Shown here in pieces: positions 5,071 to 54,705 of a stretch of DNA of 64,000 nucleotides; within the stretch, counting starts at the first letter, position 1, and every line of letters begins with the position of its first letter. The notes below the pieces were generated by a model. The model searched no databases. It had not been told where the DNA came from and saw only the letters and a program-made list of their open reading frames with translations. Made by a program: the position numbers and the translations under genes. The stretch is from the NCBI GenBank assembly GCA_964444415.1, contig CAYUHE010000001.1, positions 71,150-135,149 of the forward strand, in the 5' to 3' direction. The stretch comes from an uncultured Gammaproteobacteria bacterium. Lineage in GTDB: Bacteria; Cyanobacteriota; Vampirovibrionia; Gastranaerophilales; CAJFVJ01.

Positions 5071-5790
5071 ATGATAACAAAAATTCGACATCCAAAACTA
5101 AATATGGATCGAACCTTACGATACTCTGAGAGTGCGACAAACAAAGAGTGTGTGCTGCAGAAGAACGAAGAAAAAACTCAAACAATGAATAAATCCGCCA
5201 ACGTAACTTTCACGGGCGGATTTTTTAGTCCTAAAAAACAAGACAGTGTGAATTTTTCAGGAGCGCCTACACCTCCTAAAAAAGATTTTTGGACAAAATT
5301 AGGCGAAAATCCTAAAATTCAAAATTTCATAAAAAGCAAACGATTTGATAACCTCTTAAAAAAAGCAAATGATTTTGCCTGGATGGAAAGCATATTAATG
5401 TTTGCAATAGCAACCACTATCAAACCTGTTTCGATTATGGCATTACCTGTTGCAAAAGAAGAAGACAAAAAATATGCCGCAACAAAAGCATTTTTGGGAG
5501 GAGTTGTCGACTTTTCAATTTCCACCGCCGTCATCTTGCCTATAACCATGGTTATTAACAAATTCAATGAAAAAATCAAAAAAGACCCGACCATTTTGAC
5601 GGACAAAGTATCCTACCTAAAAGACAAAAAGAATTTCAACAATTTCAAAAAAGTTATTGAATACTCACCAAAAATTCTTTTAATCCCTGTAAGATCGGCT
5701 CTTACAATTGCCTTAATCCCTCCAACTTTGAAATATCTCTTCCCTGAAGAAGCTAAAAAGTTGAAATCAAAAAAAGGAGGCGGCAAATAA
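5071..5790 (+). CDS. Hypothetical membrane protein, module A, with F-x-G leader
   Basis: Leader motifs VTFTG and VNFSG; hydrophobic segments; homologous to the N-half of 15382..16773. Confidence 0.8.
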   Translation: MITKIRHPKLNMDRTLRYSESATNKECVLQKNEEKTQTMNKSANVTFTGGFFSPKKQDSVNFSGAPTPPKKDFWTKLGENPKIQNFIKSKRFDNLLKKANDFAWMESILMFAIATTIKPVSIMALPVAKEEDKKYAATKAFLGGVVDFSISTAVILPITMVINKFNEKIKKDPTILTDKVSYLKDKKNFNNFKKVIEYSPKILLIPVRSALTIALIPPTLKYLFPEEAKKLKSKKGGGK

Positions 5791-15381: not shown

Positions 15382-16773
15382 CTATTTTTTAACAACTTCA
15401 GGTCTTTTTAAAGGAGTTACTTTTGTCGGTTCTTTCATAAAATTCTTTTTGTAAAAATCTGCCAGAGGTGTCGCTACAACAGGCACTATATATCTGTATA
15501 TAAAGGCAAAAGCAATCATTGTAGGGGCTACTGAGCCTATATTGCCAGCACGGAATTTATATTTTTCAAGATAATTTGCTCGCAGTTCTCTTGTTCTTTC
15601 TAAAGGGGTTAATATTTTATTTTGTTTTTTCTCTATAGCTTTAAAGAATCCTTGTTTTTCTTCTTCTTGCATTATTTTTTCGATATTTTCTTCAAAATGA
15701 CTCCTCTTATATTTTTGATAATTTTCGCCCATCTCTTTGAATTTATCTTTTATTGCTTCACCCAAAGCAGCTGAAACTATAGCGGAAACCCCCCAAACTA
15801 TAAATTGATTTGCAGCAAGAGTTTTTTTGCGGTCTTGTTCTATTTTCGGGCTGCTTATTGTCGAACCTGCATATACCAAAGTTCCCAAAAACGCTGTCCC
15901 TGAAGTAAACAGATTCTTTACAGCTGAATCTGTTTTCTTATCATTAGCCATTTTTTCAGATAAATTCTTTACTTTTTTATTCCCAGCAGCTCTCTCAATA
16001 AAAGACTCTATTTTCTTTATAAATTTTTGACCCAAATTCAATTTTTCGGGAACTTGCCCTTTAAATTGAGGCTGAGAAGAATTATTTTCAAAAGCTTTAA
16101 AAGAAGCGGTTAAAGGCTCTTTCGGTTTTGAGGATGTAGAAATATTAGATGATTCATTTGTCTTTTGGATTGGTGGCTTTTGCTGCGTTTTATTTTTGCC
16201 GTCTTTATCTTTCTTAAAGAAAAGCCCCATTACAGTTGGAATCAATGCAATAGTGCCGGCAGCAATAAGCGGCTGCAAAACAAATTTTGGTCCCCAGCTC
16301 ACTATAAAATTAAATGCATCTTTATTTTTAGCATTATGCTTAATAAAGCTATTTTTTAAATATTCAGGGTCTTTATCAACTCTTTGAGCAACCTTTTTCA
16401 GGGCCGTACTTACAGGGTTAAACAGCACTATAGCCGTCACATACCCCCAAATCCCAGAAGCCATGCCATGAGCAGATGCGTATTGTTTATCTCTTTTCTC
16501 ACCACCAGGAAGACTCAAAATGGTCAAAGGTCTTAGAACACAAGCCAAGCCAAGAACTGCCGTAGCCTCTAAAAGAACAGGTTTAGCTGTCATTTTTGCA
16601 AATTTTTCAAAACCTTTACTTAGATAAAATTTCTTTTTAGCAGCTTCGCTCATCTTAAAAGGACTGCCTTTGAAATTCACATCCGAAGGTTTATTAGCAA
16701 AATTTCTTGAAAATACCGTTCTATCCCGGCTTTTCAGCCTGTCAGAATTTTGACTTAGTTGAATGACCATCAC
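15382..16773 (-). CDS. Hypothetical membrane protein, A-B fusion with F-K-G motif before each module
   Basis: N-half aligns to 5071..5790 and C-half to 5790..6476; VNFKG and PQFKG motifs. Confidence 0.85.
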   Translation of the reverse strand: MMVIQLSQNSDRLKSRDRTVFSRNFANKPSDVNFKGSPFKMSEAAKKKFYLSKGFEKFAKMTAKPVLLEATAVLGLACVLRPLTILSLPGGEKRDKQYASAHGMASGIWGYVTAIVLFNPVSTALKKVAQRVDKDPEYLKNSFIKHNAKNKDAFNFIVSWGPKFVLQPLIAAGTIALIPTVMGLFFKKDKDGKNKTQQKPPIQKTNESSNISTSSKPKEPLTASFKAFENNSSQPQFKGQVPEKLNLGQKFIKKIESFIERAAGNKKVKNLSEKMANDKKTDSAVKNLFTSGTAFLGTLVYAGSTISSPKIEQDRKKTLAANQFIVWGVSAIVSAALGEAIKDKFKEMGENYQKYKRSHFEENIEKIMQEEEKQGFFKAIEKKQNKILTPLERTRELRANYLEKYKFRAGNIGSVAPTMIAFAFIYRYIVPVVATPLADFYKKNFMKEPTKVTPLKRPEVVKK

Positions 16774-42653: not shown

Positions 42654-42817
42654 TATTAAAGTGTTCAAAAACCGATATTTCGTTTTGTAAATTTTTGTAA
42701 ATTTACAATAATATTTGCGCTAAAAAGGTTCATAAAATCCATGTCTATACTTATTATAAGAAAATAAAGTATTTTTTCATTTTGCATTCGGTTAGACATT
42801 CCAAAAAAGGAGAACGT

Positions 42818-45544
42818 ATGAAAGTTTCAAGCATTGACACTCAAGCGAGGCTTAATTTTGCTACGAATAATTTGGCTAAATCCCAAAAAATTGATGACTC
42901 GCAAACCCCTAAACCTACTAGCATTGAAACAAGTACCCCTCCTATTGCCAAAACCGTACCGGTGAACTTTACTTCGATACATAGAATGAATAAACCTTCA
43001 GCGGTTATAACTTTTGGCGGAACAAAAAATAAAGACCAAGTTCTTTTTGTTGCTGCAGAACACTATGATCAAGTCGGCGGCGTTGCGACAGTTGTTAAAG
43101 ATTTTGAAACTTTTTCACCAAAAGAAAAAGAAATGATTTGGACTCCGTATTATAACGGTGAAGTTAAATATGATCCTAAAACAGGAAAAGAAACGGGTGA
43201 AGCAGCCGTTCTTAAAAAACCTGACGGAACACCTATTTATACCAAAATGGATTTAACCAAAAATTATCTTGAAGATGTATTAAAAGATAAAAAAAATTAT
43301 GTAGAACTTGAAAAAGTATCTGAAAAAATGATGCAATTTGCTGAAGATGATATAGAAATTGCACTTTATCGAGTCAAAGGAACAAATCATGGGATGGTCT
43401 TTACTAATTCTACTGCCAGAATGGCAAAGCCTTATGCTCAAATGGCAGGTAGCCATGGAGATGAAGGTCTTTATGCTTATTCCTCAGCAGGTGCGGCTCT
43501 GCCAAAAACTTGGAAAGGTGATCCTTATGCACAATTTAGTAAAGCAGTTACAGAACTTTTGCCTGAACTTGAAAAACAAGGATTTGCTCCTGAAACAGTA
43601 ATTTGTAACGATGCTCAAACTGCTTTTATACCTGAATTTATGGCTCAAAGAAGTAAATCTGGCGATGCTTATTATCAAGCAATGAAACCTACTTATGTCA
43701 CTCATAATTTAGGCAATGGCAGTTATACAGGCCCGACGAATTATCAAAATTTAGCAACTAGCTTTATGACAAAAGAACAAATCGCTGCGGTTAAAAAAGA
43801 TCCTGCATTTATTGAAGCAATTGTTGAAGGTGAAACGGAAAAATATTTTGCAAAATTAATGCCAGAAATTGAAGCAGCAAGTTTAGGCAACAGCCCAAAT
43901 GCAACATTGATACCTCTTCTTCATCGTAAAAACGATTATGTCAAAGCAATGACAACTGTTTCCGAAAATTATGCGGAACAAATAGCAACAAATCCTAAAA
44001 AATCTCCTCAAAGCGTCTATACTCTTTGGTCAAAACTTTATAAAGAGGGTAAAGTCGGTGGTATTTTAAATCCATGTAACAACCCCGCATTTACTATACA
44101 TGGACCACTAAACGGTCAACCTGGATATAGTAAGGCTCAGCAAGCACTCAATACTAATACTGCTACTGAAGAAACCATTCCTGCTTTTGAAATTCTTAAA
44201 AAAGATGCAACTTATGAAGAAATGAAAGCGGTTAAAAATAATAATAAAAAGAATTTATTCCACAGGCTAAATGGGACTTTCCATACTAAAGACATAGGAA
44301 ACATCATTGGCGGTGCATCTGATAAAACCACGAAGATAATTGGGTCTATAGACAAAAAATGGATTGACAAAATAGATAATGGTGAAAATGTAAAACTTTT
44401 TGTAAGTTGGGGCCGTGCCGATTTCCAAAAAGGTTTTGATATAGTCCTTGATTCTTTTGAAAAACTTACTGAAAAAATCGGAACAGAAAATTCTGTACTG
44501 GTATTTGGTGGTCCTCTAGGAAAAGATGCTGACTCAGAAAAAATTCGCGAAAAAGTCAAAACTATGCTTAAAGACGATAAATTTAAAGGCAGATTAGTTT
44601 TGATAGACGGATTTGCTCCAAATGCTCCATTATCAAGTGCCGCTGATTCTGCCGTTTTTGCTTCAAGATTTGAACCTTGCGGGCTTACTGATTTAGAAGC
44701 ATTAAGATTTTATTGTACGCCTGTAGTAACCAATACTGAAGGGTTATCTCAAAAGAACCCTGACCCTAGAATAGCAAGCGAAAAAGACATTGCCACATCA
44801 TACAAAACCACTAACGAATTTTATATGCATGATGAAATCCTAAAAACAAAAACACCTAAACTCACCGAAGTTTATGAAAAATTGGTAGCATATGAGAAAG
44901 CAGCTCTCCAATATAAAAAAGTAGACGCTAGCGTTATTGATACATTAGCAGCAGAAAATGTAAAGAATTCAACCATATATAAATATCTAGAAAAAACCTA
45001 TATTGATGATATTTTGTCCGATGAACTAGCAGAAGCAATGGCGGCAAATATTAATCAAACCGATGAAACTTCAAAATTAATTTATGAAAATCATAAAAAA
45101 CTTGATACAACTTGGGAAGGAAATGCAAAACTTCATCCTCACCCATCGAACAAATCTTCAAGACAACTGTATCAAGAAATTCATATTGATCCCACTCCTA
45201 CAAAAGCCGAGAAAACTTTATTCAATTTTGATAACAGCATAATGAATAAAATCAAAGATTCTACCGAAGAGACCTCTAAAAAAATCGGCAAAGAAATAGG
45301 AGAAGGATCGAAAAACTTCTGGAAACAGCATGGTGGTAAAGTCGGTATTGCAGCAGGAGCTGTAGTTGTAATAGGCGGCTTAGCTTCTTATTTCGCCAAG
45401 CCTAAAAACGCGTCGATAAACGCTGACGGTGACGCTTTTCAAAGAACTTCTCCAAATAAAAACAACAAAGTACAAAACAAACCTACAAATGCCTCAAATA
45501 AACATAATCAAGCTCAAAAACAACAAACTGCAAAAAGAGCTTAA
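42818..45544 (+). CDS. Divergent GT5 glycogen/starch synthase-like protein with F-x-G leader and C-terminal membrane anchor
   Basis: VLFVAAE...QVGGVATV, ICNDAQTA, THNL, TTVSENYAEQI, GILN, GRADFQKGFD, SRFEPCGL; TM GKVGIAAGAVVVIGGLASYF; start at ATG 42818 after AAGGAGA. Confidence 0.88.
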   Translation: MKVSSIDTQARLNFATNNLAKSQKIDDSQTPKPTSIETSTPPIAKTVPVNFTSIHRMNKPSAVITFGGTKNKDQVLFVAAEHYDQVGGVATVVKDFETFSPKEKEMIWTPYYNGEVKYDPKTGKETGEAAVLKKPDGTPIYTKMDLTKNYLEDVLKDKKNYVELEKVSEKMMQFAEDDIEIALYRVKGTNHGMVFTNSTARMAKPYAQMAGSHGDEGLYAYSSAGAALPKTWKGDPYAQFSKAVTELLPELEKQGFAPETVICNDAQTAFIPEFMAQRSKSGDAYYQAMKPTYVTHNLGNGSYTGPTNYQNLATSFMTKEQIAAVKKDPAFIEAIVEGETEKYFAKLMPEIEAASLGNSPNATLIPLLHRKNDYVKAMTTVSENYAEQIATNPKKSPQSVYTLWSKLYKEGKVGGILNPCNNPAFTIHGPLNGQPGYSKAQQALNTNTATEETIPAFEILKKDATYEEMKAVKNNNKKNLFHRLNGTFHTKDIGNIIGGASDKTTKIIGSIDKKWIDKIDNGENVKLFVSWGRADFQKGFDIVLDSFEKLTEKIGTENSVLVFGGPLGKDADSEKIREKVKTMLKDDKFKGRLVLIDGFAPNAPLSSAADSAVFASRFEPCGLTDLEALRFYCTPVVTNTEGLSQKNPDPRIASEKDIATSYKTTNEFYMHDEILKTKTPKLTEVYEKLVAYEKAALQYKKVDASVIDTLAAENVKNSTIYKYLEKTYIDDILSDELAEAMAANINQTDETSKLIYENHKKLDTTWEGNAKLHPHPSNKSSRQLYQEIHIDPTPTKAEKTLFNFDNSIMNKIKDSTEETSKKIGKEIGEGSKNFWKQHGGKVGIAAGAVVVIGGLASYFAKPKNASINADGDAFQRTSPNKNNKVQNKPTNASNKHNQAQKQQTAKRA

Positions 45545-45651
45545 ATTAAGATATATTAATTTTATTAAAACATCTTGAAAGTTTCATTTTAAAGTACTAA
45601 AATAGTTATAGTATTTCGCATTCTATTTAAAGTCTAAAAAAAGGAGAAAAT

Positions 45652-45996
45652 ATGAAGGTTTCTGGTATTAACAACCCAGCAAGGCTTAGTTTTGCATCAA
45701 AAAACACAGCCGCAAAAAATCCTGAAAAAAAATCTTCTTGTAATTTTTGCGGTAATGACTCAACAACAGTCGGGGCGGCCATAATAAGTGCCTCTGCCCT
45801 AATCGGATTCTTAATTTATCTTGGATTAGCTCCTCAAGGCAAAAAAGCTGCTACAAAAGAAGTTGATTCTTTTCAACTCCAACAAAAGACAGCTCCTTTC
45901 AGCCAAAATTCTGAAAAAAACTTGGCACTAAATAGACCCTCTAATAAACACTACCAAAGATTATTGAAAAAACAAGAAAGATTAAAAACCGCTTAA
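45652..45996 (+). CDS. Small single-TM protein paralogous to the leader and tail of the GT5 protein
   Basis: MKVSGINNPARLSFA vs MKVSSIDTQARLNFA; TM; DSFQ/DAFQ; SNKHYQ/SNKHNQ; AAGGAGA SD. Confidence 0.8.
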   Translation: MKVSGINNPARLSFASKNTAAKNPEKKSSCNFCGNDSTTVGAAIISASALIGFLIYLGLAPQGKKAATKEVDSFQLQQKTAPFSQNSEKNLALNRPSNKHYQRLLKKQERLKTA

Positions 45997-46748
45997 TTAA
46001 CAAGCGCCTTGTGCAAAATAATCCCTGCTGAAACAGCAATATTTAAAGATTCTACTTCATTTTGGAGTGGAATCTTTACGAATTCATGAACATATTCCAT
46101 AGCCTTGGATGACAAACCCTCCGCCTCAGAACCAAACATAATAACAACAGGCATATTAAAATTCACTTTATTCAAATCAATAGGCGACTTGGCAGGGTCT
46201 AAAATTGTCCCGATAAATTTATGATTGCGAAATTGATGCCTGATTTGTTCAAAATCATCATTATGCACAATCGGAATTTGGAACAAATTCCCTGTGGCAG
46301 AACGAATTACCTTGGGATTGTAAAGGTCAACACAATCGCCGCAAAGAACTATCAAATGCACTCCAAGAGCAGTAGCTGTGCGAATTATCGTACCCAAATT
46401 CCCTGGGTCTTTGATATTTTCTAAAAGCAAAACTGTTTTGCCGTTCAATTGTGTGAAATCATATTCTTTTTTCTTAGCCACTGCAATGATTTCAGGAGCA
46501 CTTTGAGTTGTTGATATTTTTTTCAAAATTGCTTCTGTTACCAAAAATTTTTCTTTTGCACTAAAAATTTCTTCCTCTAAAAAAAATAACTTTTCAATTT
46601 CAATCCCAGCTTTTATCGCCTCTTCTATTGGTTTTTTGCCTTCAAGCAAAAAAAGCCCAGTTTCATCTCGAAATTTTTTCTGCTCCAAAGCTGCCGCAAA
46701 TTTCACAACATCATTACTTATACTCGTAATTTTTACTGTTTCTGCCAT
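45993..46748 (-). CDS. TrmH/SpoU-family RNA methyltransferase
   Basis: IKDPGNLGTIIRTA, FGSEAEGL, ESLNIAVSAG. Confidence 0.92.
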   Translation of the reverse strand: MAETVKITSISNDVVKFAAALEQKKFRDETGLFLLEGKKPIEEAIKAGIEIEKLFFLEEEIFSAKEKFLVTEAILKKISTTQSAPEIIAVAKKKEYDFTQLNGKTVLLLENIKDPGNLGTIIRTATALGVHLIVLCGDCVDLYNPKVIRSATGNLFQIPIVHNDDFEQIRHQFRNHKFIGTILDPAKSPIDLNKVNFNMPVVIMFGSEAEGLSSKAMEYVHEFVKIPLQNEVESLNIAVSAGIILHKALVN

Positions 46749-52170: not shown

Positions 52171-54705
52171 ATGTTAATTACGCCCATTCAAAAAAGCTAT
52201 GAGATTTTCAAAAGAAATAATGACTTAGCTTGTACGTCTGTAAAAAGTTTGCAGCTAAAGCCTCAGCCTGAACGCGACCAGATAAATTTTTCCGGTAAAA
52301 AAGGCTACAAATTTGATTTAAAAAATATGCCGAATTTGCCATGTGCTTATTGCGCAAAAACTATGATAACCACAGAGGAACAAATCCGTTTTGGTGAAAA
52401 AATTGCTACTTTAACAGGAGAAAAACTACGAAACGCTCTTGAGTTTATCGCAAAAGAAGACCAATTCCCAATTGAACAAAGGGTTGCAAAATTATTAATA
52501 AGGCAATCCAAACAAAAACCTGATAGAGATGCCCAAGAACTCTTAATGAGTGCCTTTCCGTGGGTAGAAAAAAAGCTGGTTAAACAACAAAAAGAAATTT
52601 TAGACAAACTTCCTGAGTTTATTAATAATCTAACAGGAAAAACTAAAGAACTAACGATGCACAAATTTAATGAAATTAATTTAATTCTAAATCACTGTGC
52701 TCCTGATTATATTTTTAAGAAAAAAGCCGCTATAAGAGGGTTTCACAAAGTTTTTAGAGAAGAACAAGACCCTAATAATCAAATGATTCTTGACAAAAGT
52801 TTGGGAATTTTAGCATCACTACCTACTTCCAGAAATAATTTAGAAGCTTTTGTTGTCAAATATAGCCGAAGAGGTTCAAGAGAAATCGGCGAAAGACTTT
52901 TAGACCCTTTCTTATCCAGTACGGAACATATTGAACCAAACTCTGAAAATGGTGTGTCTAAACCCTATAATTATTTGGCTGCACATAAAAGTTGTAACGA
53001 AAAAAGAGGCTCAGAGCCATTTCACCTGTTTGTTTACGATAATCCACAAGTAATTCCAAATATAGAAAACCAGATCAAAATTATTGCAAAAAAAATTGAA
53101 AATTTTGAAATTTTTGGACTTGAAAATTATCCGCCCCAAGTCACAAGGACTTTAAAAAAACTTTCCCATGGACAAATAGATATTGATATGAGCGGTTTTA
53201 TTCCTCCTGATAAAACTTTTAGAACATTCCATGAGCTAGGTAGCAAACAACCTCAAAAAAAAAGTTCAACAACAAATAAAGTATGGCGCCACCCAAATGC
53301 AAACTCGGGTTCAAGCTCAAATCAAACAACAAAAGCCAAATTAAGCAAGCAAGCTCAAAAAGAAATTGAAATTAAAAAACTTTTTGAACTCCTTAAATCA
53401 AGTACTCCTCAACAGACCCCGACTCCTCATCCTGTTTACAAAAAGAAGCTGCCAAAACCAATTGAGCCTGTTAAAACAAAAGAGGAACACCCAACCGAAA
53501 TTTTGAAAAAAGAACTAATAAATATGTTTGAAGCCCAACCATTGAAAGACCTCTCAACTAAAATACGATCAGAACTAATCGCCAGAGAGAGTGATGCGAA
53601 TAAAGAAATTCTAAACACAAATACTGCTTTATTATATGAAAAAGCTAAAGAAGAAGAGAGAATTTCAAATTGGACCCAAAAAATATACTCCTCAATACAA
53701 AAAGAACAGAAAGCTAAAGACGAAAAGGGGAAACAAAAAATTGTTGACTTGTTCTTATCTTCCCCGACAGAAGGTCTAAAAGAACAAATTCGTGCAGAAA
53801 TAATCTCGAGAGAAAGTGACCACGTCAAAGCAACCTTGGCAATAAGCTTTGATTTGCCAAATGAGAGAATGCAGATAGAAAAAAGAATTTTAAATTGGAC
53901 CAGAGAAATACACTCCTTAATACAAAAAAGACAAAAGTCGCCAGAAAGAAATCTCGCAGACAAAAATTTTCAAAATGGCGAAACAGACACAAAAGCACTT
54001 AAAAAAGAAATCGCCTCTTTATTTGTAAAATCTCCAGGAGAAGGGCTAAAAGAACAAATCCGTACAGAAATAATCTCAAGAGAAAGTGACAGAATTAAAG
54101 AAATTTTGAGTATAGATCCCGAACTACTAAACAAAAGAATGAAAATAGAAAAAAGAATTTCTGAATTAACTAATGAACTATATAGTTCTGTTTTATTAAA
54201 GAAAAAATCAATCGTTAACCCCGTAAATCAGATATCTCTCGTAACAGAACAACCTAAAACATATCCTATTAACAAATTTGAATCTAAAGATGATAAAAAA
54301 AAGAGAGAAATTTTTGAACTGTTTATCTCCTCTACTGCAAAAGATTTGAAAGAACAAATTCGTATGGAAATAATTTCAAGAGAAAGTGATGGAGTTAAAG
54401 AGCTTCTGGGCATAAATCCCAAATTGCTGGCTAATAAAACTCATCTGGAAAAAAAGATTTCTAATTTGACTAAACAAATCTATGAAGCAGTTGAACAAAG
54501 ACAAAATGAAAATCCTCATCTTAGACCCCAAGAACCTAAAAATAATCAATCAAATGAAAAAACTGTAATTAAAAAAACTAAAACCCCTGTTATTATAATT
54601 AAACAGGAGCAATTACAAGAAGCTTTGGGAAATAAAAAAACAGGAAACTTGAGACAACTGAAAAAATTAATGAAGCAGCAAATAGCGCAAAAAGGTAATT
54701 CATAA
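52171..54705 (+). CDS. HNH-endonuclease-like protein with F-x-G leader and four C-terminal helical repeats
   Basis: INFSG leader; PCAYC; STEHIEPNSENG...NYLAAHKSCNEKRG; four L(K/S)xxIRxE(I/L)I(S/A)RESD repeats. Confidence 0.75.
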   Translation: MLITPIQKSYEIFKRNNDLACTSVKSLQLKPQPERDQINFSGKKGYKFDLKNMPNLPCAYCAKTMITTEEQIRFGEKIATLTGEKLRNALEFIAKEDQFPIEQRVAKLLIRQSKQKPDRDAQELLMSAFPWVEKKLVKQQKEILDKLPEFINNLTGKTKELTMHKFNEINLILNHCAPDYIFKKKAAIRGFHKVFREEQDPNNQMILDKSLGILASLPTSRNNLEAFVVKYSRRGSREIGERLLDPFLSSTEHIEPNSENGVSKPYNYLAAHKSCNEKRGSEPFHLFVYDNPQVIPNIENQIKIIAKKIENFEIFGLENYPPQVTRTLKKLSHGQIDIDMSGFIPPDKTFRTFHELGSKQPQKKSSTTNKVWRHPNANSGSSSNQTTKAKLSKQAQKEIEIKKLFELLKSSTPQQTPTPHPVYKKKLPKPIEPVKTKEEHPTEILKKELINMFEAQPLKDLSTKIRSELIARESDANKEILNTNTALLYEKAKEEERISNWTQKIYSSIQKEQKAKDEKGKQKIVDLFLSSPTEGLKEQIRAEIISRESDHVKATLAISFDLPNERMQIEKRILNWTREIHSLIQKRQKSPERNLADKNFQNGETDTKALKKEIASLFVKSPGEGLKEQIRTEIISRESDRIKEILSIDPELLNKRMKIEKRISELTNELYSSVLLKKKSIVNPVNQISLVTEQPKTYPINKFESKDDKKKREIFELFISSTAKDLKEQIRMEIISRESDGVKELLGINPKLLANKTHLEKKISNLTKQIYEAVEQRQNENPHLRPQEPKNNQSNEKTVIKKTKTPVIIIKQEQLQEALGNKKTGNLRQLKKLMKQQIAQKGNS
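53497..54510 (+). repeat. Four intragenic ~70-aa repeats
   Basis: LSTKIRSELIARESD / LKEQIRAEIISRESD / LKEQIRTEIISRESD / LKEQIRMEIISRESD, each followed by E(E/K)(R/K)I..(W/L)T. Confidence 0.85.

Follow-up and report, generated by a model that had tools for sequence, protein, structure and literature searches.

The 64,000-nucleotide stretch of contig CAYUHE010000001.1 analysed here (the window) encodes a 908-residue protein (P0001) related to bacterial glycogen synthase (GlgA). The most economical view of its sequence is that P0001 is a retaining glycosyltransferase of family GT5, predicted to be catalytically competent and of the alpha-1,4-glucan (glycogen/starch) synthase type. Our favoured explanation, offered tentatively, is that P0001 is a tail-anchored alpha-glucan synthase that would face the cytoplasm and be distinct from the housekeeping GlgA. 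It belongs to an unnamed and undescribed family that is found almost only in the Gastranaerophilales (Melainabacteria). These non-photosynthetic relatives of the cyanobacteria keep a second, twice-as-long form beside the normal one. Few glycosyltransferases have been studied as closely as the glycogen and starch synthases, and those of bacteria are taken to be soluble proteins of about 480 residues in which the KxGGL loop is strictly conserved. The present family differs in its lineage-specific leader, its putative membrane anchor, an "invariant" Lys that can be lost, and a catalytic-loop Glu that moves between two positions.

Predicted fold and active site of P0001

P0001 scored above the Pfam cut-offs for Glyco_transf_5 (PF08323; 48 bits against 22.7) and Glycos_transf_1 (PF00534; 36.3 against 26.4), and below those for the NCBIfam glgA model TIGR02095 (85.7 bits against 328.45) and for the best GlgA equivalog (59.5 against 603). 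Matches to solved structures by sequence were confined to its C-terminal half, the best being 1rzu (E 3.8e-8). An AlphaFold2 model, built from a 21-sequence alignment, reached a mean predicted local distance difference test score (pLDDT) of 78.7 and a predicted template modelling score (pTM) of 0.76, with pLDDT values below 50 at residues 1-12, 17-68, 211-219 and 822-908. Searching with this model, Foldseek returned GT5 synthases in its top ranks (E around 1e-19). With VIA-align, the model matched Arabidopsis SSIV (6gne) with a Z of 24.3 (474/493 residues, model residues 71-795) and the E. coli glycogen synthase (2qzs) with a Z of 24.0 (458/477 residues, model residues 73-794). Together with these two, GBSS, the glycogen synthases of A. 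tumefaciens and P. abyssi, and barley SSI all fell within Z 21-24 with 417-477 residues aligned, whereas GT4 enzymes ranked below them (Z around 19). In the predicted model, one complete synthase fold spans residues 71-795.

Beyond the approximately 460 residues that can be aligned to solved synthases, this span contains some 260 additional ones, distributed over four blocks (insertions A to D in Table 1). The stretch W766...Y785 was considered as an extra C-terminal motif and rejected, since it corresponds to the ordinary last helix of GlgA (W462 in E. coli). Residues 651-750 in front of it are therefore an insertion and not a C-terminal extension.

Catalytic residues were mapped in a 13-row alignment of E. 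coli K-12 GlgA, four canonical Gastranaerophilales GlgA proteins, P0001 and seven other members of its long family, in which identity to bacterial GlgA was 20-26%. D137, H161, N162, N246 and K277 of E. coli GlgA correspond to D265, H296, N297, N418 and K477 of P0001, while R300, K305, E377, C379 and G17/G18 correspond to R533, K538, E619, C621 and G87/G88. The roles of D137, H161, N246, K277, R300, K305, E377 and C379 are described in passages of PMC13456619. Across the 13 rows, D137, H161, N162, N246, R300, K305 and C379 were invariant and K277 nearly so. The aromatic residue of the E. coli "GY" pair (Y355 in our own numbering) aligns with F599 of P0001, as read from the alignment blocks. An earlier note, made from the letters of the window, had credited P0001 with a full set of GT5 motifs, and the matched catalytic residues, the Pfam scores and the GT5 fold bear this out.

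The residue that departs is K15 of E. coli GlgA, which is Q85 in P0001, the other catalytic residues being kept. As the earlier note had read, K-x-G-G-L appears as Q-V-G-G-V (residues 85-89), and the complete donor loop, H-Y-D-Q85-V-G-G-V, contains neither the Lys of KxGGL nor the preceding Pro. Passages of PMC2576272 call KxGGL strictly conserved in all synthases and assign Lys15 to the binding of ADP-glucose, and a cis-Pro preceding KxGGL is mentioned in a passage of PMC6086201. On the acceptor side, D-W-H reads D-A-Q in P0001 and D-x-Q in most members of the long family.

Distribution and evolution of the long GT5 family

A word-indexed search with P0001 yielded 29 matches of 884-1170 residues at E≤1.2e-81 (P0001 itself included), all described merely as "hypothetical protein", and an exhaustive search yielded 418 representatives at E≤1e-3, 72 of them at E≤1e-30. 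The nearest ESM Atlas clusters were likewise "hypothetical protein" clusters of Melainabacteria. In species-representative genomes, 155 of 163 candidate stretches encoded relatives. Counted from their titles, the 80 loci that were kept comprised 52 Gastranaerophilales, Melainabacteria, Vampirovibrio or Cyanobacteria, 21 entries named "bacterium" and 7 others, and a full open reading frame (ORF) was readable in 69 of them. Two relatives, P0004 and P0005, are 59% and 54% identical to P0001, and scans of metagenome contigs revealed no relative closer than 41% identity. At the level of abstracts, supplements aside, we found no published description of a long GT5 form in the literature on glycogen, GT5 or starch synthases of Melainabacteria/Gastranaerophilales.

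A more distant subfamily consists of proteins of approximately 920-1050 residues. All four that were read (P0125, P0128, P0105 and P0118) have a leader and a GT5-like body, and the first three also have a C-terminal transmembrane (TM) segment and tail, which P0118 does not. At least one member of this subfamily keeps K-V-G-G-L. ORFs of about 1000 codons belonging to it are present in many of the g4 genomes.

We built a tree (IQ-TREE quick search, LG+G4, 862 columns) from six canonical GlgA proteins, on which the root was placed by assumption, and 96 long-family rows. The latter were 15 ORFs from genomes, 18 database proteins, and GTDB loci having a full ORF of at least 700 residues with the loop motif, identical rows being merged. 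According to the SH-like approximate likelihood ratio test (SH-aLRT), the long family is one clade (support 100), in which the forms from two sister-genus genomes (G003 and G004), which have no TM segment, make up the sister group of all others (99). P0001 falls together with P0004 and P0005 (100), the place of this trio among its neighbours being weak (56).

D265, H296, N297, N418, R533 and K538 were all present in 101 of the 102 rows, the remaining row being one without that part of the protein, and K477 was Lys in 91. The Glu of the catalytic loop occurred either as EPCGL (36 rows) or as APCEL (66 rows), was never absent or doubled, and switched at least six times on the tree; its alternating position looks like that of a migrating catalytic residue. 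The Lys of KxGGL was found within one position in 57 of 94 family rows and was absent from 37, with at least 12 changes, and its replacement by Gln was for that reason rejected as a peculiarity of P0001. A related strain, from a lake-water run of another study, differs from the window by 5-10%, and among the differences listed 32 lie in coding sequence, 21 of these at third codon positions. From these sequences, I read an enzyme that would be under selection for catalysis, with a donor loop freer than that of textbook synthases.

These same data bear on the alternative that the chemistry of P0001 has changed or disappeared. The sugar might then go to an acceptor other than a glucan, be it a lipid, a protein or a special oligosaccharide, or P0001 might serve as a membrane scaffold that binds glucan or nucleotide. 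The mycobacterial GlgA-like protein Rv3032, for instance, is involved in making methylglucose polysaccharide. The dispensability of the donor-loop Lys, the altered D-W-H motif and the approximately 260 inserted residues would suit such a change, as would an adjacent mini-copy of P0001 (see below) that has no catalytic body and so points to an independent function of head and tail. However, the invariance of the other active-site residues and the constant retention of one loop Glu would be hard to explain without catalysis, and the nearest folds are all alpha-1,4-glucan synthases, above GT4 (Z 24 vs 19). We regard this alternative as unlikely.

The long form, canonical GlgA and donor supply

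We surveyed 121 genomes of the order, each at least 90% complete. The long family was found in 37 of them at E≤1e-20, including 15 with a full-length match at E≤1e-60, while glgC and glgA were each above cut-off in 117. Twelve of the 15 holders of a full-length long form had both canonical genes. The three exceptions were the genome of the window (G000; 1.88 Mb in 70 contigs, 96.2% complete) and the sister-genus genomes G003 and G004 (99% complete), which together are all sampled members of family f1. Outside these, glgC above cut-off was missing in G019 and glgA in G123. The canonical GlgA proteins of genomes with the long form have no leader, insertions or TM segment in the alignment. Passages of a preprint (10.1101/2021.06.18.448987) credit Melainabacteria with glgA ("so far, the only one") and a GH57-type glgB.

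Because the long family coexists with glgA and glgC elsewhere, P0001 would represent a second, specialised synthase, and its state as sole GT5 enzyme of G000 would be secondary. Within G000, P0001 is the only match both to itself and to the glgA model. Taken literally, it is thus the only glgA of its genome, a finding that the earlier note had set against its own proposal, but the survey marks this as a secondary state.

GlgC was not found in G000, where the best match (60 bits) is RfbF. A GlgC-like gene was not found in the genus of the window either, and G003 and G004 have a 341-codon one far from their long GT5 gene. In the five genomes examined, neither GalU nor a GH13-type GlgB scored above cut-off (the GH57 type was not searched). 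The seven NTP_transferase matches of G000 are two that are RmlA-like by eye (294 and 299 residues), ManC, RfbF, GlmU and two small unassigned enzymes. The earlier note had suspected an altered donor specificity (for example, UDP-glucose). This suspicion is a fair one, given the missing KxGGL Lys and a 96%-complete genome in which neither GlgC nor GalU was found, and a donor site that is altered or less strict would be in keeping with the loss of the Lys. In this lineage, P0001 is the only clue to the making of alpha-glucan without GlgA, GlgC or GalU.

In another family of the order, an 850-residue GT5-like ORF adjoins a 380-residue nucleotidyltransferase at G009:C4:96744-99696, the latter being GlgC-like but, with 168 bits, short of the glgC cut-off. 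Possibly, this GlgC-like gene is a dedicated donor-making partner of the long GT5-like enzyme.

G000 does encode five GH13 proteins and an alpha-glucan phosphorylase, which scored 473.7 bits with TIGR02094 (cut-off 191.7). Four odd GH13-like ORFs match the alpha-amylase domain only in part. One of 1392 residues (G000:C2:69072-73247) adjoins one of 594 residues (G000:C2:73410-75191). Another, TreZ/GlgB-like and of 806 residues (G000:C17:7981-10398), has a leader-like N-terminus ending in VGFGG, and a further one has 511 residues (G000:C19:35897-37429).

This inventory raises the question whether P0001 is a plain housekeeping glycogen synthase, i.e. a long form that has taken over the role of GlgA and makes storage glycogen, with a leader and anchor that are decorative or regulatory. 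Its being the sole GT5 enzyme of a genome that retains a phosphorylase and GH13 proteins would agree with this, and the long form of G003 and G004, which is less derived (KTGG, DWH, AYQG, EPCGLTQ and no TM segment), looks like a working GlgA substitute. However, no GlgC or GalU was found to supply the donor, the KxGGL Lys is lost, and the glgA model is matched with only 85.7 of the 328.45 bits of its cut-off. Moreover, the coexistence of the family with glgA in the other 12 genomes indicates that its original job was a different one. A plain housekeeping role thus appears improbable to us.

C-terminal helix, basic tail and adjacent small ORF

The segment VGIAAGAVVVIGGLASYFA at residues 842-860 (mean Kyte-Doolittle hydropathy (KD) 1.98) is the sole such segment of P0001 and lies 48 residues from its C-terminus. 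Residues 867-908 behind it contain 8 K/R and 2 D/E, and the preceding KPKNAS adds two Lys (10 K/R vs 2 D/E). A C-terminal hydrophobic segment with KD≥1.5 was present in 47 of the 69 related loci. Like tail-anchored proteins, P0001 has one C-terminal hydrophobic segment and no signal peptide. It does not resemble the C-terminal sorting signals of sortases, exosortases or rhombosortases, in which a recognised motif, a TM segment and a short basic cluster end the protein and a Sec signal peptide begins it. None of the 16 NCBIfam families listed for P0001 at E≤1 is a sorting-signal model (NCBIfam presumably holds those for LPXTG, PEP-CTERM and GlyGly-CTERM), the signal peptide is missing, and the tail has 48 residues. 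Based on this sequence, a membrane tether through the single C-terminal helix is likely.

Starting 107 nt downstream of the GT5 gene, and preceded by the same ribosome binding site, is a small ORF (P0002, 45652-45996, + strand). Its first 20 residues are identical to those of P0001 at 12 positions (E 4e-4), and its TM segment (approximately residues 37-62) and basic tail are collinear with those of P0001 (32% identity over 88 residues, E 0.16). P0002 thus consists of a head and a tail without catalytic body, and leader and anchor may accordingly be a unit that has its own function. In the related strain, a 509-nt contig runs from the 3′ end of the GT5 gene into the beginning of P0002. RNA library X10 yielded two 151-nt contigs on the P0002 region (45643-45793 and 45888-46038) and none on the GT5 gene, and library X13, from the same sample as the DNA run that best covers the stretch, yielded no match; both libraries are uninformative for transcription of the GT5 gene.

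An N-terminal leader shared with other proteins of the genome

The leader of P0001 starts with MKVSSI, carries three Phe motifs (LNFAT at residues 12-16, VNFTS at 50-54 and ITFGG at 65-69), and ends as ...AVITFGG at residue 69. It contains 8 K/R, 4 D/E and 46% S/T/N/Q/P, and the best 12-residue KD mean within the first 70 residues is 0.9, without a Sec-type core. The leader fits a pattern of an M-x-[IV]-x-x-[IV] start, a polar stretch and [ILV][STN]F[SGKTA][GA] within the first 90 or so residues. A start of the form M[KRQ][IVL]xx[IVLT] was found in 65 of the 69 related loci, and ISFxG stands out as a conserved block of columns in the family alignment.

Screening the approximately 1666 longest ORFs of the genome by composition and motif gave 48 leader candidates. 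A tighter motif was passed by 19 of the 1666 N-termini, against 3 of 907 windows at internal Met residues and, in 20 shuffles, 3.9 on average (8 at most). Sixteen of 23 leader-tagged ORFs had no Pfam match at E≤1e-3. The remaining ones were a SIS-domain protein, a NagA-like amidohydrolase, a weak GNAT match, a DSP-type phosphatase, a caspase-like protein, an alpha/beta hydrolase and one weak match at chance level. In some tagged ORFs, the leader runs straight into a TM segment. A hidden Markov model of the leader columns of the family, searched against the genome itself, detected only the GT5 protein and P0002 (E 0.033), the wider tag emerging only from the screen by composition and motif.

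Within the window, leader-bearing ORFs are located at 52171-54705 (+), 15382-16773 (-) and 5071-5790 (+), and others are located on further contigs. The gene for the SIS-domain protein adjoins that for the amidohydrolase, both being tagged. Directly upstream of the G003 orthologue, a 334-residue ORF (L007:351-1355, +) has a similar leader (...PLSFTGK...) followed, by eye, by a protein-kinase-like glycine loop.

Two known kinds of signal were compared with the leader and rejected. A double-glycine leader of the bacteriocin type does not fit, because the GG is not conserved and many members read F-K-G or F-T-G. The flagellar gate-recognition motif is F-x-x-x-hydrophobic, and here Lys, Pro or Thr occupies the fourth position past the Phe.

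The earlier note had also envisaged P0001 acting on the cell surface. This does not hold up well, since the leader is also carried by enzymes whose substrates are cytoplasmic and by proteins in which a TM segment follows it, which argues against work at the surface.

The same leader is central to the alternative of P0001 as an exported enzyme or effector. In this case the leader would be read, for example, by the export gate of a flagellar-type type III system, the helix would enter a host, prey or outer membrane, and glucan would be made from the UDP- or ADP-glucose of the target. This agrees with a leader that is polar, disordered, acid-poor and without Sec-type core, that is enriched at N-termini of the genome (19/1666), and that heads mostly orphans besides a DSP phosphatase and a caspase-like protein. 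A basic tail suits a tail-in, body-out orientation, and with the housekeeping pathway absent it is not apparent what an intracellular synthase would be needed for. The secreted chlamydial GlgA (reported in passages of PMC4829429) would provide a precedent.

Export gates are available as well: all five genomes examined contain two full-length FHIPEP (FlhA/SctV) genes and a copy of the C-terminal part only. The FHIPEP-related loci of G000 lie outside the window (G000:C1:18668-28765, G000:C5:5104-7089 and G000:C6:64753-65775). Its second full-length gene is clustered with rod genes, an SLT transglycosylase gene, FliE, FliF, FliH and FliI, with no hook or filament genes nearby. It is conceivable that this second gate reads the leader. 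However, the cluster is a flagellar-type set (secretin, needle and translocon genes were not searched), and among the tagged proteins are metabolic enzymes of ordinary appearance as well as proteins whose leader is directly followed by a TM segment.

A further point against export is where the DNA was met. Runs that contain the stretch 42700-46100 almost whole are labelled freshwater metagenome and belong to one study, possibly the source, and smaller shares were found in lake-water, biofilm and soil runs, those from lake water in diverged pieces. The organism is thus probably an environmental member of the order, living in freshwater and related to the gut Melainabacteria. Taken together, export of P0001 as an effector strikes us as doubtful.

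A bolder variant can be formulated, in which P0001 would be cargo of an undescribed, Melainabacteria-specific export route that reads the Phe-Gly leader, perhaps via the second flagellar-type gate. With its helix leading, it would enter a foreign cell's membrane or an outer compartment and there make alpha-glucan using a donor not produced by the cell it came from, with the mini-copy as a co-exported partner or decoy. If true, the secreted glycogen synthase of chlamydiae would have a counterpart in a free-living or epibiotic organism, but we hold this to be quite improbable.

A proposed tail-anchored synthase facing the cytoplasm

The explanation that we favour is instead that P0001 works on the inside of its own cell. 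Its C-terminal helix would insert post-translationally as a tail anchor, leaving the catalytic body of about 90 kDa on the cytoplasmic face of the cell membrane, and the N-terminal Phe-Gly leader would be a general address or processing tag of the order. That P0001 is a working synthase is suggested by its fold, its residues and their covariation. Since this enzyme class needs nucleotide sugars, its catalytic body would lie in a cytoplasm, that of the producing cell being the simplest choice, and the occurrence of the leader on the SIS-domain protein, the amidohydrolase and the GNAT-like protein also counts for the cytoplasmic side. In G000, the canonical glgA and glgC would have been lost, leaving P0001 as the sole GT5 enzyme, and its donor would be one not made by GlgC, or ADP-glucose from another source. 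Regarding the proposal of the earlier note that P0001 is exported or membrane-anchored, anchoring is thus plausible (one C-terminal hydrophobic helix and no signal peptide), while export did not find support.

Several observations weigh against this explanation. The basic tail (10 K/R vs 2 D/E) favours an orientation with the tail in and the body out, given that the basic side of a TM segment stays inside (positive-inside rule). Three Lys also precede the helix. The basal members from G003 and G004 have the leader but no TM segment, so that the anchor is not essential to the family, and the leader itself could be an export signal. A Lys described as strictly conserved (in a passage of PMC2576272) is lost in P0001 and in 37 of 94 family rows. 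With no donor pathway found in G000, the enzyme could moreover be idle or otherwise employed. Finally, as G000 is 96% complete, glgC and glgA may lie in the missing part, but the 99%-complete G003 and G004 are also without them.

If P0001 is active, the family would constitute a natural experiment on the roles of the KxGGL Lys and of Glu377. P0001 would also be a candidate for membrane-sited glucan initiation in bacteria, priming being an open question for glycogen and starch, and this large and easily assayed enzyme could serve as a handle on the Phe-Gly leader of Melainabacteria.

Gene organisation

The open frame extends over 42782-45544 (+) and would encode 920 residues if begun at a TTG. 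The ATG at 42818 (908 residues) lies 5 nt 3′ of the Shine-Dalgarno-like AAGGAGAA (42807-42814, +), and the N-termini of long-family relatives align at its Met. Because of these two features, we place the start at this ATG. The coding region of 42818..45544 given by the earlier note for a protein of about 908 residues is therefore right, and its account of the build of the protein stands as well. The disordered leader ending in ITFGG, put at about 70 residues, has 69, mostly with pLDDT<50. The "several insertions" are four blocks of some 260 residues in total within the GT5 core, and the C-terminal TM segment with basic tail is the single hydrophobic segment 842-860 followed by 48 residues (Table 1).

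The genes flanking that of P0001 encode an ABC ATPase, RimM, TrmD, an FAD oxidase, an Fe-S/CCG protein, a SpoU methylase, and M24 and M17 peptidases. As the earlier note had stated, no glgB, glgC, glgP or glgX is adjacent, the neighbours being housekeeping genes, and no glg gene was found among them; the GH13, phosphorylase and sugar-nucleotidyltransferase matches of the genome all lie outside the window. Clustering of the ORFs around 71 loci of the family revealed clade-local synteny only, with nothing glycan-related and nothing in common with the window. The clade-local neighbours are, by eye, a metallo-beta-lactamase-fold hydrolase, a response regulator and GlmS. Promoter and terminator scans of the region gave counts not above those of shuffled sequences.

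Table 1. Features of the P0001 gene and its surroundings (positions in the window)
Feature	Position	Strand	Basis or remark
Shine-Dalgarno-like AAGGAGAA	42807..42814	+	same element before downstream small ORF
Coding sequence of the 908-residue long GT5 protein P0001, stop codon included	42818..45544	+	
Residues 1-69, polar disordered leader	42818..43024	+	pLDDT <50, no hydrophobic core
Residues 70-795, GT5-type core with GT-B fold and four insertions	43025..45202	+	Foldseek, VIA-align, Pfam, E. coli GlgA alignment
Q85-V-G-G-V89, counterpart of E. coli GlgA K15-T-G-G-L19	43070..43084	+	alignment
Insertion A, approximately residues 112-232, mostly beta strands, N-terminal Rossmann domain	43151..43513	+	borders approximate
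Insertion B, approximately residues 304-375, helical, after H296-N297	43727..43942	+	borders approximate
Insertion C, approximately residues 419-522, between N418 and C-terminal Rossmann domain, contains K477	44072..44383	+	borders approximate
R533-A-D-F-Q-K538, counterpart of R300...K305 (phosphate-handling pair)	44414..44431	+	alignment; roles from passages of PMC13456619
S616-RFEPCGLTDL-E627: E619 = E377, C621 = C379, E627 = second Glu	44663..44698	+	alignment
Insertion D, approximately residues 651-750, helical, before canonical last helix	44768..45067	+	model, alignment
Residues 751-795, canonical GlgA C-terminal helix region; W766 = W462; N769, S780 and Y785 conserved	45068..45202	+	
Residues 796-841, low-confidence linker	45203..45340	+	predicted model
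Residues 842-860, Gly/Ala/Val-rich hydrophobic segment, putative tail anchor	45341..45397	+	KD 1.98
Residues 861-908, basic tail with clade-conserved G-D-A-F-Q-R motif	45398..45541	+	
Promoter-like site before small ORF, 10/12 matches	45575..45603	+	consensus match; regional count not above shuffles
Small ORF P0002, 114 residues, head-plus-tail mini-copy	45652..45996	+	

Comparison with known systems

Among the Phe-Gly leaders of the Gastranaerophilales, that of P0001 is typical in its start, its acid-poor polar stretch, its [ILV][STN]F[SGK][GA] motif and the lack of a Sec core. It differs from the others in heading a large enzyme of known class with a C-terminal anchor, and in having three Phe motifs instead of one.

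The GlgA of Chlamydia trachomatis does not stand out in length or architecture and is not known to contain a TM segment. In passages of PMC4829429 it is reported to be secreted by type III secretion, which was tested with reporters, with a signal in its N-terminal 20 residues, and to accept UDP-glucose, in agreement with what the earlier note had said about chlamydial secretion. The likeness to P0001 would lie in a bacterial GT5 enzyme that is proposed to act outside its own cytoplasm and on a non-standard donor.

The fungal alpha-1,3-glucan synthases Ags1 and Mok1 combine, in one chain, a GT5 domain, many TM helices and a GH13 domain on the outside. P0001 resembles them in having a GT5 domain that is putatively at a membrane, but it has one helix and no pore and cannot by itself export its own product.

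With bacterial GlgA (E. coli 2qzs/3cop and A. tumefaciens 1rzu), P0001 shares the GT-B fold, the catalytic residues and the last helix (W462). To the 477 residues of the E. coli enzyme, the 908 of P0001 add four insertions, a 69-residue leader, a linker, a TM segment and a tail. Unlike bacterial GlgA, it has Gln for Lys15 and D-A-Q for D-W-H, falls below the NCBIfam glgA cut-off, and has no glgC partner that we could find.

The best structural match to P0001 is plant SSIV/III (6gne), in which a GT5 core is likewise joined to long non-catalytic parts, with no sequence similarity to P0001 seen outside the core. The extra parts of SS4 set the location of the enzyme and allow granules to be started at membranes. 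In SS4, however, the extra part is an N-terminal coiled coil and no TM segment is known, whereas the extra parts of P0001 are insertions, a leader and a putative C-terminal anchor.

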